A stretch of DNA of 64,000 bases from Escherichia coli (GCF_048403405.1 NZ_CP183129.1); one strand, 5' to 3'; positions 19,579-37,779 are shown, counted from the first letter of the stretch. A program made the numbers and translations. Notes: generated by a model not told the origin, from the letters alone.

Positions 19579-20874
19579 TTAATTTTTCATTGCTTCGTTA
19601 TGGGGCATGGTTGGGGCAAACTCGCTTAACTGTGTATTTAACAAAGCTACCTGTGCATTATTGTTTTCAGACATCCATTTTCCGTATACCTGAAATACCA
19701 TTTGCGCATCTGCATGGCCCATCTGGTTTGCTATAAATGCCGGGTTAGCACCAGCTGTCAGCGACCAGCAGGCATAAGTATGTCTCGACTGATATGATTT
19801 TCGATGGCGGAGTCCGGCACGTTTTATCGCTGCGTCCCACATCTGCCTTATTGAGTCAACGGTAAAATGGTCACCATAATTTTTTACTCTCGCTGACACT
19901 TCAGGTTGAAAAACAAAGGTGCATTTTTGTTTTTCTGTTCTGCCATACTCTCTGAGGTGAACATCAATGATATGCTCTTTGCTCAGTCTCGTTAATGTCA
20001 TCTGACTCCGGAGAGCGTCGATTGCTGGCTTAATAAGATGAATGACCCGATTGGTTCCCGCCTGTGTTTTTGGTACCGTGAAACGGTCTTTTGCTAAATT
20101 TCTCCTGATCATCATTGTTCCATTTTTCAGATCTATGTCCTCCCATCCAAGTGCACACAGCTCACCAGGGCGAACGCCAGTATAAACAGAAACACACCAT
20201 AAATTTTTGGCTTGCTGATTTCTGCACGCATCGATAAGACGGATGAATTCCTCCCGCGAAAGAGGATCCGGAATGGTTCTTGATTCCTTTAATGGCGAGA
20301 TCCCCTTAAACGGATTATCTGCCAGGTAACCGTTATCAACACCAAACTGGAACACGGCGTTAAGATTTGTCATGTAATTATTTACAGTTACAGCCGATCT
20401 CCCTGGTTGTGTAACAATATAGTTACTTTTGGGGATCTGGTATCCAGTCAGTAGCTCTTTACGAACCTCCAGTAATTTTTCTTTATTAATCGATGAGGCA
20501 AGATTTTTTTCACCGATTATGCTCAGGATATTTTTGATGACGGCACGGTATGTGTTGAGTGATGTTTTGGCGACTTCAGTTTCTTTCAGTGCCAGAAATT
20601 TTTCAGCCAGTTCTTTTATGGTTAAATCTTGTCGGGCCTCACCAAATTTTTCCAGATTGCGTGAGGAGGGAAACTGTTTTGCATAGTCGAAAACACCAGT
20701 TTTTATTGCGTAACAAACAGAGGAGCGTAGTTCACCTGCAACGCGCCTGTTTTTTGCTGTGTCAGGAACCCCCAGATTTTCCCTGACTCTTACGCCTTTA
20801 TAAACAAACCAGATACGTAATTTCCCTCCATGGTTTTCCACGCCTGTCGGATATTTCATTTCAACTTCTCTCAT
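19579..20874 (-). CDS. phage integrase (tyrosine recombinase)
   Basis: 431 aa; C-terminal catalytic region with RHTYACWSLTAGANPAFIANQMGHADAQMVFQVYGKW (R..H..Y signature). Confidence 0.88.
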   Translation of the reverse strand: MREVEMKYPTGVENHGGKLRIWFVYKGVRVRENLGVPDTAKNRRVAGELRSSVCYAIKTGVFDYAKQFPSSRNLEKFGEARQDLTIKELAEKFLALKETEVAKTSLNTYRAVIKNILSIIGEKNLASSINKEKLLEVRKELLTGYQIPKSNYIVTQPGRSAVTVNNYMTNLNAVFQFGVDNGYLADNPFKGISPLKESRTIPDPLSREEFIRLIDACRNQQAKNLWCVSVYTGVRPGELCALGWEDIDLKNGTMMIRRNLAKDRFTVPKTQAGTNRVIHLIKPAIDALRSQMTLTRLSKEHIIDVHLREYGRTEKQKCTFVFQPEVSARVKNYGDHFTVDSIRQMWDAAIKRAGLRHRKSYQSRHTYACWSLTAGANPAFIANQMGHADAQMVFQVYGKWMSENNNAQVALLNTQLSEFAPTMPHNEAMKN

Positions 20875-28688: not shown

Positions 28689-29714
28689 ATGCACATTTTA
28701 TCTGTTTCAAAAAAGGAAGTTGGAAGAGCTGGGGATAGATTAGTTTCTCAGTTTGGTACAGGTGAAAAATATAAAGAGGAAGATGTACAAATTCTTCATG
28801 AGTGGAGGATGTTGCATTTATATCCTTTAAGTAAAATACAATTTTATATGGAAAGAGAGGCTATTTCCTTAAACAAAAATGCGTTACTATCCTCTAGAAT
28901 TAAGAGGATGCCTTCCATTGTTACTAAGCTTTCTAGATTTCCTGATATGAAGTTAAATAAGATGCAGGATCTTGGTGGGTGCCGGGCTATTTTAAATAAT
29001 CTGGATCAAGTGTATGATTTAGTTAATAAAATAAAATCATCTAAATTCTCACATGAACTAGTTAGAATGGATGATTACATGATAGACGTGAAAGATTCTG
29101 GTTATAGAAGCTTTCATATGGTCTATTCATTCCAAAATAAAAAATTTCCATCTTTAAATGGGTTGCGCATTGAAATGCAAATAAGAACAGCTATTCAACA
29201 TAGCTGGGCTACAGCAGTTGAAATGGTTGGTTTGTTTCGAAAGGAATCATTGAAATCTGGTTTTGGTGATGCAAGATGGCTTAGGTTTTTTGAATTGGTA
29301 TCAGAGCTTTTTTATAAACTTGAGTATGAAAAAGAACCATCTGGGAGTTATATAAAAATATCAGAAGAATTAAGTTATTTATCCGTCGAGTTGAATGTTT
29401 TCGATATATTAGCTGCTTACAATGCCGTAGTTAGCCATATTGAGGGTAGCAAAAAATATGATAAAGGACTTTGCATAATTGTTGTTGATACCATAAAGCG
29501 GAATATAAATATAAAGAGCTTCGAAAATCACAATCATGCGAAGGCGGCAGAAGCTTATGTCGAGTCTGAAAAATACTGCGCGGAAAATAAAGGCTGTGAA
29601 GTGGCTATGGTTTCTGTTAGTTCAATTAGTGAATTAAAAAATGCATATCCTGCTTACTTTTTAGATACGAAAACTTTTTTAAATTATCTCAGTAGGTATG
29701 TTTTTATAAAATAA
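28689..29714 (+). CDS. RelA/SpoT-domain nucleotidyltransferase (small-alarmone-synthetase / toxSAS-like) with uncharacterised C-terminal domain
   Basis: 341 aa. All synthetase-fold motifs present in order: RIKRMPSIVTK, DLGGCRAIL, YRSFHMVY, EMQIRTAIQHSWATAVE. C-terminal ~150 aa unrecognised. The gene lies in a conspicuously AT-rich island. Confidence 0.8.
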   Translation: MHILSVSKKEVGRAGDRLVSQFGTGEKYKEEDVQILHEWRMLHLYPLSKIQFYMEREAISLNKNALLSSRIKRMPSIVTKLSRFPDMKLNKMQDLGGCRAILNNLDQVYDLVNKIKSSKFSHELVRMDDYMIDVKDSGYRSFHMVYSFQNKKFPSLNGLRIEMQIRTAIQHSWATAVEMVGLFRKESLKSGFGDARWLRFFELVSELFYKLEYEKEPSGSYIKISEELSYLSVELNVFDILAAYNAVVSHIEGSKKYDKGLCIIVVDTIKRNINIKSFENHNHAKAAEAYVESEKYCAENKGCEVAMVSVSSISELKNAYPAYFLDTKTFLNYLSRYVFIK

Positions 29715-33404: not shown

Positions 33405-33589
33405 CGGGATAAACATTGGCAGTTGAAGGTCCACGCGAACCATTTATCCGGCAAAATTCCACGCGTAATCCTGTGGTAATTTCTTCTGCATCTCGAAGAT
33501 TGAGAGCTGAAACGTGAAGCTGGGCATCGATACGCCATCGGATGGGAATATAAGACCTTTGCTGCTTTTGTAGTCAAAGTTTTTGACAA
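33405..33589 (-). pseudogene. degraded cold-shock protein gene (cspF-like remnant)
   Basis: Minus-strand frame encodes ...[42 protein letters not shown] (Csp C-terminal half) but the N-terminus is in another frame and no stop follows the expected end. Confidence 0.5.
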
Positions 33590-33909
33590 TTCCTGTCATT
33601 TTAGGGGACAGAAAAACTCCTTAATACTGATAACCTGGTGCACCATACACACGTTCCTGGAGAAAACTACTTTTTTGATAGGGTTGAAGGTGGCTGGATG
33701 TCTAAAATAAACATTGCTTCATATGTTCAACTATGAGTTAATGACTGCGTCGGTTTGAAGAACAGACGATATACGAAGTAGTTTACTAAAGCAGTTCTCA
33801 TTTCAGGTGTTATTCACTTATTCCTTCTTTGAGTCTCTCCAATTAAGTACGAAGTCGTTTCTGTTATGCAAACCATTTATGCCGAAAGGCTCAAGTTAAG
33901 GAATGTAGA

Positions 33910-34125
33910 ATGTCAAATAAAATGACTGGTTTAGTAAAATGGTTTAACGCTGATAAAGGTTTCGGCTTTATTTCTCCTGTTGATGGTAGTAAAGATGTGT
34001 TTGTGCATTTTTCTGCGATTCAGAATGATAATTATCGAACCTTATTTGAAGGTCAAAAGGTTACCTTCTCTATAGAGAGTGGTGCTAAAGGTCCTGCAGC
34101 AGCAAATGTCATCATTACTGATTAA
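33910..34125 (+). CDS. cspB: cold-shock protein (CspA family)
   Basis: 71 aa, [38 protein letters not shown]... with RNP1/RNP2 motifs; long 5' leader typical of csp genes. Confidence 0.8.
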
Positions 34126-34406
34126 AATTCATCGCTCGTCTGTATACGATAACGAAGAAGGCTGATGCCTGAGTAGAGATACGGACAGAGTAGTGAATAT
34201 TGGATCTCTTTAATAAAAAGTAAGGAGGTCCAATACATGAAACAATGGCCAGCATATTTGGCAAAATCTTAATCAGGAAAAGTATGCTAACCATTGTGGT
34301 GAAGTGCAGGTTTGCTGCATGAATAGTTTCACAGCAGAAGCTAACTGCTGGCATCGCAAAACAAAGTGCGTAAGTGGATGACTCCCACAAAAAGCACCAC
34401 AATCTC

Positions 34407-34488: not shown

Positions 34489-34659
34489 TCAGGCTACAGC
34501 TTTAAGATTTGTCTGGAATACTTTGTTGCAATGAGGGCAGATCAAAAGGGCACCTTTTTGTACTCTTGAAAAACTGTGTTCTGACTCTTGGGTGCAGTTT
34601 GGGCAGGAACATTTAACGAGATAATTACGGCGTGATTTTGAGTCTTTACGTTCTGACAT
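34489..34659 (-). CDS. small C4 zinc-ribbon protein
   Basis: 56 aa from MSERKDSKSRRNYLVKCSCPNCTQESEHSFSRVQKGALLICPHCNKVFQTNLKAVA; strong RBS (AGGAAAAG) before this Met. Confidence 0.5.
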   Translation of the reverse strand: MSERKDSKSRRNYLVKCSCPNCTQESEHSFSRVQKGALLICPHCNKVFQTNLKAVA

Positions 34660-34878
34660 AGGCTTTTCCTGTATAAATGGCCGTATACAGTACACTAAAT
34701 ATGAAAACATTTCTCGTATTATTATTTTATATGTGACTTTCTTTCAAAATAATTACCCACATTTTTAATGTGTATGTTTTTTTAGCGCCGTTGAGAACAA
34801 CGTGTGCTGTCAAAACTACCCCGTAGACTCCGATCTTTTCAAACATATTGCACCATCCGTGTACATCGGGGTGAGGAT

Positions 34879-35094
34879 ATGAAATCAATGGATAAGTTAA
34901 CAACAGGTGTTGCCTATGGCACATCGGCGGGTAATGCTGGTTTCTGGGCATTGCAGTTACTCGATAAAGTAACTCCGTCACAGTGGGCTGCAATCGGTGT
35001 GCTGGGTAGCCTGGTTTTTGGCCTGCTGACGTATCTGACAAATCTTTATTTCAAGATTAAAGAAGACAGGCGTAAGGCTGCGAGAGGAGAGTAA
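34879..35094 (+). CDS. essQ: class II pinholin (phage 21 S-like) with dual-start motif
   Basis: [71 protein letters not shown]; two TM helices; Met1/Met4 dual start. Confidence 0.85.
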
Positions 35095-35098
35095 TCCA

Positions 35099-35650
35099 AT
35101 GACTCAAGACTATGAACTGGTTGTGAAAGGAGTCCGTAATTTTGAGAATAAAGTTACGGTAACTGTAGCCTTACGGGACAAAAAACACTTTGACGGTGAA
35201 ATTTTTGACCTGGACATCTCGCTGGACCGTGTTGAAGGTGCCGCGCTGGAGTTTTATGAGGCAGCAGCCAGAAGGAGCATCAGACAGGTCTTCCTGGATG
35301 TTGCTGCCGGGTTATGTGAAGGGGATGAGCAGTCGCCGGAAAAGCGCCCCATAATTTTAGAGGCGCAGAATGTGTGGATAACCTACAAAGGAAAGCTACC
35401 GGGAAGAATTACTGGTTCTCTGAAGACGCCACCGACGGCATTGCGGTCAGAAAAAGATGATATTGAATCGCCCATTGAAAAACTGGAGGGCAGCGTCGCT
35501 GATCTGAATAAAAAATTGTCGGTGCTGATTCCTTCTGAAGATGAAAAAAAACGCCGCGATGAGCAGTTTGCGGCGTTTTACGATTATTGCATTGAAGTTA
35601 CTCGCAGGAATTTTGTGAAGATTTTTGAGGAGGGTAAATCTCTTCAGTAA
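35099..35650 (+). CDS. hypothetical protein inserted between holin and endolysin
   Basis: 183-aa ORF with GAGGAG RBS directly after the holin stop; no recognisable motif. Confidence 0.55.
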   Translation: MTQDYELVVKGVRNFENKVTVTVALRDKKHFDGEIFDLDISLDRVEGAALEFYEAAARRSIRQVFLDVAAGLCEGDEQSPEKRPIILEAQNVWITYKGKLPGRITGSLKTPPTALRSEKDDIESPIEKLEGSVADLNKKLSVLIPSEDEKKRRDEQFAAFYDYCIEVTRRNFVKIFEEGKSLQ

Positions 35651-35858
35651 GCTTATTGGCGGACGCTGCAATTAATTCAGGAAGGTCCGCAAGGTCATCT
35701 GTCAGTGGATATGATGAAAAATCGGCGGCAGTTCTGTTAAGAAGCGCTTTAACTAATTCCTTTTCCTTCTCCGGCAACAAGTTGATTAGAGCTACGACTG
35801 CTTGCCTGAGTGCGATTAAATCAGCAAAAGTTTGTTTAGGTAGATTTGTGTAATCCAT
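35598..35858 (-). CDS. hypothetical protein, convergent to the lysis operon
   Basis: 86-aa ORF with GAGG RBS 8 nt upstream of its ATG; helical, acidic; overlaps the previous gene's 3' end by 53 nt. Confidence 0.45.
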   Translation of the reverse strand: MDYTNLPKQTFADLIALRQAVVALINLLPEKEKELVKALLNRTAADFSSYPLTDDLADLPELIAASANKLTEEIYPPQKSSQNSCE

Positions 35859-35971
35859 AGTCGCCTCTGTGTTTATCAGATTGACATCCTCCTCCCGCCA
35901 GTGCCCATCACTGGTGAGGTAAGATTTAACATATCCGGGGATTTGAAGCCGATAAATCCTGATAAATATCC

Positions 35972-36999
<1,028 letters not shown>

Positions 37000-37362
37000 A
37001 TTAATATTAAATCGGATTATTTTTAGCGCTGAATGTGAAATTTAAATAAAAAGGACTCTTCCATGAGTCAAAATCCTTGAAATCTTAAGGGTAAGATAAA
37101 AGGTCATTAGACAGAATGACACGTTTTATTAATAAATAAAGCTATTGTTTCATTCGTGTGTTTTTCTTTACAAAAGTAATCCTTGCTATGGTTGGTTAAT
37201 CATGCGTTAATGGTGTTCTGGTTTGTTACAAAATTATCTGAAGCAGTCATTGTTATAATTTTATTATTTGTACCTCTTGAGATTTCCTTGTTGGTTTTTC
37301 TCTCTGATATTTTTTTTCGGACCATTCTGCCCAAGGGCTAACTTCTTCAAAAGGTAATAATG

Positions 37363-37575
37363 ATGTCTAACAAAATGACTGGTTTAGTGAAATGGTTTAA
37401 CCCTGAAAAAGGTTTTGGTTTCATCACGCCGAAAGATGGTAGCAAAGATGTGTTTGTCCATTTCTCAGCTATTCAGAGCAACGATTTCAAAACGTTAACT
37501 GAGAATCAGGAAGTCGAATTTGGTATTGAGAACGGACCTAAAGGCCCCGCGGCTGTTCATGTTGTGGCACTTTGA
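37363..37575 (+). CDS. cold-shock protein (CspA family; cspI-like position after the lysis cassette)
   Basis: [45 protein letters not shown]... Confidence 0.8.
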
Positions 37576-37779
37576 GGTAGATAATATTACAAACCATATT
37601 CACTTTAGATGCCCGTGTTGCCATGGTTCTCAGTATAGAACATCATCTTTTGATGTTTCTGACAGGAATCCTTTCGGGGCAAAATGTATCTTTTGTAAAT
37701 CAATGATGATTACATTTGATAATATTTCACAATACTTAAATGTTAGCCGTCTATCGTTAGATTTAAGAAAGTGAAAATG

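Follow-up and report, generated by a model that had tools for sequence, protein, structure and literature searches.

The window analyzed here is a stretch of 64,000 nucleotides from Escherichia coli (GCF_048403405.1, NZ_CP183129.1) in which two convergent open reading frames (ORFs) lie inside a prophage lysis cassette, between the pinholin and the signal-arrest-release (SAR) endolysin: a 183-aa ORF on the plus strand (ORF183; 35099-35650) and an 86-aa ORF on the minus strand (orf86; 35598-35858). On balance, and with moderate confidence, we read ORF183 as a late YdfR-family protein that engages RNase E and is paired with a moron-like antisense gene, orf86, whose product may be its antagonist. 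Both genes belong to already catalogued families of unknown function; what is new here is the dissection of ORF183 as a mosaic, the conservation of the convergent pair, the deletion of this pair from K-12, and the recurrent use of the site by antisense genes.

Judged by sequence, ORF183 is a regular gene of the YdfR/DUF1327 family, which is usual between a phage-21-type pinholin and a SAR endolysin in Qin-like prophages and Shiga toxin (Stx) phages. Pfam DUF1327 (PF07041) matches residues 1-112 of the product (E = 7.8e-43, model positions 1-92 of 93), phrog_2091 matches it over its full length (E = 6e-112), and RefSeq names its homologs YdfR family protein. Since ORF183 belongs to DUF1327 and, in the Qin prophage of K-12, ydfR is flanked by essQ and rrrQ, ORF183 is a standard member of the cassette and not an insertion. 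The family is also widespread, with thousands of copies at this position in E. coli prophages. A search with the linker part alone (query positions 1-126) detects it in 2,961 of 5,426 complete E. coli genomes (median, two copies), and 100 phage records encode the YdfR N-domain, among them those of Stx1a-, Stx2-, and Stx2c-converting phages, H-19B, and BP-4795.

An initial annotation, made from the sequence alone, had located both ORFs, their ATG starts, their Shine-Dalgarno sequences, and their convergence exactly as we find them, and had taken them for two real genes of no known function, which agrees with the DUF1327 and phrog_2091 matches of ORF183 and the phrog_2572 match of orf86. Its view of the 183-aa ORF as an unexpected insertion does not hold, as a YdfR/DUF1327 gene is standard at this position in K-12 Qin, in E. 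coli prophages, and in phages; of its two inserted genes, only orf86 is accessory and missing from most related cassettes. The annotation had considered that a standard 183-aa gene together with an unconserved antisense ORF would speak against it. The first proved true, while the antisense ORF turned out to be conserved, with homologs at 41-55% identity that keep the same convergent partner. The homology and structure searches and the comparison of related cassettes that it had proposed place ORF183 in the YdfR family and orf86 only in its own. The truly variable unit, as delimited by these comparisons, is not two genes but the C-terminal third of ORF183 together with orf86 and the spacer that follows (about 35435-35920).

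Sequence alignment and structural modeling indicate that ORF183 is a mosaic of a conserved N-domain, a conserved linker, and a swappable C-terminus, which in this window is a helical-hairpin module that we call A. The N-domain (residues 1-72; 35099-35314, plus strand) is delimited by Pfam and by its identity to K-12 YdfR at 62 of 72 residues (86%), and AlphaFold2 predicts it as three strands and a long helix (strands at residues 5-14, 18-27, and 34-43, helix at 50-73), with a predicted local distance difference test (pLDDT) score of about 70-80 over residues 5-73. The linker (residues 73-112; 35315-35434, plus strand) is common to the 114- and 116-aa YdfR proteins; residues 73-125 are modeled with low confidence (pLDDT <50), yet they are conserved in sequence. 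Module A (residues 113-183; 35435-35650, plus strand) is modeled as two helices (residues 124-143 and 147-182; pLDDT about 55-65), is hydrophilic (grand average of hydropathy [GRAVY], -0.79), has no membrane segment, and is homologous to 73-aa proteins of Salmonella described below. The mean pLDDT of the whole model is 57.8. YdfR homologs come in lengths of 103, 114, 116, 169, 176, 183, 211, 268, and 296 aa, and the N-domain is present in all of them. A Foldseek search of the ORF183 model against the PDB returned no match with an E value of <=0.001, a sequence search of the PDB returned nothing significant, and hairpin A has no match in Pfam, NCBIfam, or PADLOC.

The N-domain provides the functional lead. 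A 2026 study (PMC13232886) recovered K-12 YdfR in a two-hybrid screen and found residues 1-72 to be sufficient for the interaction. Full-length YdfR gave a signal only with RNase E residues 1-597 and co-purified RNase E 1-598, i.e., the catalytic half, and purified K-12 YdfR carried DNase-resistant nucleic acid, with RNA co-purification (PMC13232886). By sequence homology, the N-domain of ORF183 corresponds to this segment of K-12 YdfR reported to bind RNase E. The literature on DUF1327, the RefSeq accessions, the PHROG identifiers, and the lysis ORFs of H-19B yielded no function beyond that study, whose citation of an earlier screen (Paradis-Bleau et al. 2014) also ties ydfR to envelope integrity.

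K-12 YdfR (b1555, in Qin) shares with ORF183 the essQ-rrrQ position, the start context, and the N-domain, but it is only 103 aa long, has a different middle part, and has no hairpin, whereas ORF183 has the common linker, hairpin A, and an overlapping antisense gene. At the DNA level, the window aligns collinearly with K-12 from the holin up to roughly codon 72, diverges from there, and becomes alike again at the endolysin start, ATAAATATCCATG. The K-12 locus was also compared with a metagenomic locus, L092, in which the order is holin, YdfR, antisense gene, endolysin and the middle of YdfR is K-12-like. K-12 is collinear with this type of locus up to CGTCCTCATC and then jumps to ATAAATATC, just ahead of the endolysin start, so that about 560 bp comprising the hairpin, the orf86 homolog, and the spacer is absent from K-12 (ydfR at L002, MG1655 positions 1640054-1640365). 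This comparison identifies K-12 ydfR as a deletion derivative of an L092-type locus that has lost the whole pair. The textbook K-12 YdfR is a truncated form, which bears on how the recent RNase E interaction study is to be read. A separate observation on L092 is that an extra A in an A-run (GACAAAAAAACGC) at about positions 1036-1050 (flipped strand) frameshifts the YdfR N-domain, owing to either a sequencing error or a pseudogene.

The second gene, orf86 (B), is by sequence and modeling a real, conserved accessory gene that encodes an acidic, predicted three-helix cytoplasmic protein of the phrog_2572 family. The family profile matches the product over its full length (residues 1-86 of 86, E = 4.4e-53). 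The gene occurs in 313 of the 5,426 complete E. coli genomes, always on the chromosome, and in eight phage records, among them those of induced phages able to plate on K-12 or E. coli C. An exhaustive search recovered two diverged homologs, P0139 (93 aa, 55% identity) and P0141 (89 aa, 41% identity); P0139, which represents the Salmonella type, also matches phrog_2572 (E = 3.5e-27). Within E. coli the pairwise ratio of nonsynonymous to synonymous differences (pN/pS) of orf86 is about 0.3; a 65-aa plus-strand frame (35656..35853), which has its third codon positions in common with orf86, yields the same ratio, so dN/dS could not decide the coding strand. In every distant pair, the orf86 frame has the top BLOSUM score (e.g., 155 versus <=95 and 221 versus <=163), in an alignment that was built in that frame. 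The start codon (ATG or GTG) and the Shine-Dalgarno sequence are conserved in position across the family, and a seven-codon in-frame indel distinguishes its lineages. AlphaFold2 predicts helices at residues 8-25, 30-48, and 59-74 (pLDDT 72.5), and the protein is acidic (pI 4.6, charge -5.5), with no signal, membrane segment, hydrophobic N-terminus, or lipobox. Searches of Pfam, NCBIfam, PADLOC, and the PDB found no relative of orf86, and a fold search of AFDB50 found only orf86 itself. The label DUF1823 that orf86 carries in some phage records rests on a nonsignificant match (E = 0.18) and was rejected, as was a 975-aa fungal TPR/CHAT protein (P0140), whose match is driven by repeats.

In the window, the 3' ends of ORF183 and orf86 overlap by 53 bp (35598-35650). 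The arrangement of A and B recurs in lineages that have little else in common around it. PhiR12_2 carries a very different allele of the YdfR N-domain, but from about 35440 on, its hairpin, orf86, and spacer are close to those of the window, with the same 53-bp overlap. In L092, both the hairpin and the orf86 homolog have diverged (41% identity), and the overlap is 59 bp. The most distant examples are Gifsy-like prophages of Salmonella enterica, in which the order is Q, Phage_holin_8, Phage_holin_3_7, GH19 endolysin, Rz, a 73-aa gene, a convergent 93-aa orf86 homolog, DUF1441, and terminase. These loci have no YdfR N-domain, and their holins and endolysin are unrelated to those of the window. 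The 73-aa protein (L089 and L093) is homologous to hairpin A and is encoded by a stand-alone gene after Rz, whose start lies on the stop codon of Rz and whose overlap with the antisense gene is 59 bp. The pN/pS of this stand-alone A is about 0.3, and that of its B partner is about 0.5. A and B have diverged jointly to 30-50% identity in three lineages while the arrangement has been kept. By these sequences, A and B are a mobile two-gene unit that occupies the holin-endolysin slot as two diverged E. coli-type alleles and a position after Rz in Salmonella. Decay of the pair can be seen in a degraded Salmonella prophage (L096; 5164-5415, minus strand), where the orf86 homolog has lost its first ~10 codons and the 73-aa partner is intact.

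The junction between YdfR and the endolysin is, across 85 sampled loci, a recurrent slot for unrelated antisense genes. The most frequent arrangement (53 of the 85 loci) is a 116-aa YdfR followed by a 63-nt gap without an antisense gene. The 183-aa YdfR with orf86 accounts for 13 loci, and a 114-aa YdfR with a 90-aa antisense gene (phrog_2411; e.g., L007 1600-1872, minus strand) accounts for 12, including one whose sole antisense ORF past the ATG filter is 72 aa long. Two loci combine a 268-aa YdfR with a 104-aa antisense gene (phrog_1853; e.g., L006 2106-2420, minus strand), which is present in the prophage of O104:H4 HUSEC2011. Four more have a 114-aa YdfR with a 50-nt gap, a 296-aa YdfR, or a 116-aa YdfR with a 1,241-nt gap, and none of them has an antisense gene except for a 90-aa antisense ORF in the 116-aa locus; an unclassifiable remainder lies outside these classes. 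BLASTP among the 86-, 90-, and 104-aa antisense proteins detected no similarity, and the 90- and 104-aa proteins have no match in Pfam, NCBIfam, or PADLOC. The ~50 nt just before the endolysin ATG is conserved in all junction types. In Stx phages and in other prophages of E. coli, the YdfR proteins (114/116, 268, and 296 aa; phrog_406 and phrog_1085) resemble ORF183 in their N-domain, linker, and pinholin/SAR-endolysin slot; they differ in that they have no C-terminal module, a hairpin plus an extra domain, or an extra domain only, and in that the antisense gene is absent or unrelated.

The conserved leader of the endolysin contains a candidate promoter for orf86, with TTTATC (35956-35951) and TATGTT (35933-35928) separated by 17 nt (35928-35956, minus strand). 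Its match to the consensus is weak, and we propose it on grounds of conservation. On the sense strand of orf86, TTTATC-N17-TAT(G/T)(T/G)T is found 67-86 nt upstream of every start in the orf86 family. The Salmonella loci retain this box, together with a degenerate version of the endolysin start, even though they have no endolysin downstream of it, which suggests that the box serves orf86. A GC-rich hairpin, CCUC..CGCCAGUG-cccau-CACUGGUG-AGG (in DNA, CGCCAGTG cccat CACTGGTG flanked by CCTC and GAGG; 35891-35919), is located in the 113-nt spacer (35859-35971), with the orf86 start on one side and the endolysin leader on the other. It appears in the centroid fold of both strands and has no U-tract on either. 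A related hairpin occupies the same place in loci of the 104-aa type, and different hairpins do so in the 90-aa type; the spacer as a whole does not fold better than shuffled sequences (the z-score is not significant). A scan for consensus terminators found none between the convergent genes and none for orf86.

Under the reading that we favor, ORF183 would be made along with the lysis proteins and would act on host RNA decay through RNase E. orf86 would be a moron-like gene transcribed in antisense orientation, like bor of phage lambda, from the weak candidate promoter in the endolysin leader. Because there is no terminator between the convergent genes, Q-antiterminated late transcription would be expected to silence orf86 at induction, so that B and A would be made at opposite times, and B may counteract A. 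The comparison with bor and other late-region morons is apt in that orf86 is a small gene directed against late transcription, in or beside the lysis cassette, and present in only some related phages: it was found in the 13 loci counted above, is absent from close relatives, and was lost from K-12 by deletion. The Salmonella homolog, between Rz and the terminase region, has the very position that bor has. The G+C content across 35500-35900 is 0.415-0.43, versus 0.46-0.55 in the flanks, a small difference. Unlike Bor, the orf86 protein has no lipoprotein signal peptide or lipobox and no similarity to the Bor family, its only match being phrog_2572; its gene has a candidate promoter only, has no terminator that we could find, and is interlocked with a partner on the late strand.

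If this reading is right, a protein that more than half of the complete genomes of E. coli encode, as do many Stx phages, would be a phage protein made late that engages RNase E. The antisense gene and the late operon interlock beside a SAR endolysin, where local transcription has a direct bearing on spontaneous lysis and, for Stx phages, on the release of toxin. Control of lysis or of host RNA decay by the pair would give a well-studied lysis system a new accessory layer.

Several observations weigh against this reading. Overproduction of YdfR in K-12 altered few transcripts (PMC13232886), so a strong effect of YdfR on RNase E is unsupported. Neither profile nor structure searches gave a functional hint for either product. 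Hairpin A occurs without B within YdfR proteins of 296/305 aa, which makes the linkage of A and B frequent, not obligatory. The scan for consensus promoters did not call the orf86 box, in keeping with its poor match, and the same leader box also precedes endolysin genes at loci that lack an antisense gene and may therefore act for the endolysin instead. Finally, RefSeq (PGAP) often labels ORF183 as a partial YdfR pseudogene that is "missing C-terminus."

The last point leads to the alternative that A and B are no functional pair. orf86 would then be an independent moron that landed in a YdfR gene of the 296-aa type, ORF183 would be a truncated remnant that reads 17 foreign codons, and their co-occurrence would result from overlap or hitchhiking. 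ORF183 reads its final 17 codons from the strand opposite the orf86 tail, and homology to the 296-aa relative runs through the hairpin and stops at about 35590-35625, right where orf86 ends on the opposite strand. The PGAP label, the occurrence of A without B, and the presence of unrelated antisense genes in the same slot beside YdfR proteins of other lengths fit this alternative as well. The state of A in Salmonella speaks against this alternative, since A there forms a gene of its own (73 aa) whose start is coupled to the stop codon of Rz, with a low pN/pS and the 59-bp overlap with B; so does the joint divergence of A and B in three lineages with their arrangement intact. The 176- and 211-aa variants of YdfR, moreover, have an in-frame deletion or insertion within the hairpin and keep the ...KSLQ tail, which argues that the C-terminus of ORF183 is translated despite the RefSeq label. 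We regard an unpaired moron as unlikely, though it deserves to be taken seriously.

A bolder version of the paired reading would make A and B a self-contained and hitherto undescribed two-gene switch of lambdoid lysis cassettes, with A as a late effector, B as an antagonist expressed in lysogeny, and mutual exclusion enforced by interlocked convergent transcription from the promoter in the endolysin leader. The junction would then recruit unrelated antisense genes (86, 90, and 104 aa) to the same promoter. We think this extension rather improbable in its full form.

The toxin-antitoxin, defense, and antiholin readings have no positive support. Two small genes that are tightly linked and mobile between prophages, in a moron-rich region of a prophage that carries a candidate defense gene (PDC-S33) elsewhere, might constitute a toxin-antitoxin-like, abortive-infection, or exclusion module, in which A is a harmful late or induced effector, B is its antidote, and the lysogen is guarded against superinfecting phages. 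Some type I toxin-antitoxin loci do have a convergent layout with overlapping 3' ends. The features of the pair fit neither type: type I is contradicted by A, which is hydrophilic and has no membrane segment, and by B, which is a protein that evolves under purifying selection and not an antitoxin RNA, and type II is contradicted by the convergence of the genes, which would be co-oriented in such a system. In addition, PADLOC (PADLOC-DB 2.0) contains no match for ORF183 or orf86, Pfam and NCBIfam contain none for the hairpin or orf86, and A is fused to YdfR in E. coli. Such a module is thus very unlikely.

Less probable still is a role for orf86 as a cytoplasmic regulator of lysis timing, akin to T4 RIII or an antiholin cofactor, that would protect against premature lysis from leaky late transcription through binding either to the holin, at its basic cytoplasmic tail, or to the SAR endolysin. 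T4 RIII and the regulators of the Mu SAR endolysin are likewise small, soluble, helical proteins encoded with lysis genes, and leaky SAR endolysins are dangerous. The acidity of orf86 and the constant location of its family in or at the end of the lysis cassette would suit such a role, but the holins (Phage_holin_8 and holin_3_7) and GH19 endolysin of the Salmonella loci are unrelated to those of the window and leave no common target, and the pinholin already has its own dual-start antiholin. We found no similarity in sequence or fold between orf86 and the T4 or Mu proteins or other known lysis regulators, and orf86 lies on the strand opposite the lysis genes. That orf86 is noncoding, with an antisense RNA or transcriptional-interference element or the 65-aa plus-strand ORF being what is conserved, hardly merits consideration: the plus-strand frame matches orf86 in pN/pS through the shared third codon positions and is also open in L089, but the BLOSUM scores, the conserved start and Shine-Dalgarno sequence, and the in-frame indel all favor the minus strand, whose ORF is called by all pipelines and models as a plausible amphipathic three-helix protein, whereas the plus-strand product is basic, rich in Ser, Ala, and Arg, and begins with TTG.

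Both ORFs belong to the late operon of a lambdoid (Qin-type) prophage that is complete and extends from the integrase (19579-20874) through tail genes past 60 kb. The flanking genes are those that the initial annotation had named. Upstream is an essQ/S21-type class II holin (a phage-21-type pinholin; 34879-35094, plus strand) of 71 aa with a dual start at Met1 and Met4 (MKSM), which matches phrog_9876 and phrog_20 and is annotated essQ or essD on 99% identical DNA in RefSeq. Its stop codon (TAA, 35092-35094) is followed 4 nt downstream by the start of ORF183, which has a good Shine-Dalgarno sequence (GAGGAGAG at 35083-35091); that of orf86 is AGAGG, 5 nt ahead of the ATG. Downstream is an rrrQ-type SAR endolysin of 177 aa with a SAR-like N-terminal segment (35972-36505, plus strand; phrog_7, E = 1e-62; rrrQ in RefSeq). 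It is followed by rzpQ, an Rz i-spanin with DUF2514 (36502-36999, plus strand; phrog_312, Rz-like spanin), and, within it, by an rzoQ-type (Rz1) lipoprotein ORF with an LTSC lipobox (about 36695-36949, plus strand), in agreement with the K-12 annotation rzpQ/rzoQ. DNA that is 99% identical is found in many E. coli chromosomes, where the genes are annotated essQ, YdfR family protein, hypothetical protein, rrrQ, and rzpQ.

The surrounding genes include cspB (33910-34125, plus strand) and cspI (from 37360, plus strand) on either side of the lysis cassette. Two full-length cspA-type thermoregulator 5' leaders (Rfam RF01766) at 33749-34141 and 37205-37621 (plus strand; 158.8 and 112.8 bits) belong to these cspB- and cspI-like genes and are the only Rfam matches; the late region thus has cold-shock morons to either side of the cassette. 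Two small minus-strand ORFs lie between Q and the holin, a cspF-like one that appears truncated or frameshifted (33444-33599) and a ynfU-like zinc-ribbon gene (34489-34710); with these two, orf86 is the third antisense gene early in the late operon. The candidate defense gene mentioned above lies between the replication genes and the gene for the Q antiterminator (28689-29714, plus strand) and encodes 341 aa; it matches PADLOC PDC-S33 (E = 5e-119) and also phrog_4773. In strain KK19-02 (L001), whose otherwise similar prophage was compared over ~6 kb upstream of the lysis cassette, the gene that precedes hokD carries the annotation of an anti-phage dCTP deaminase.

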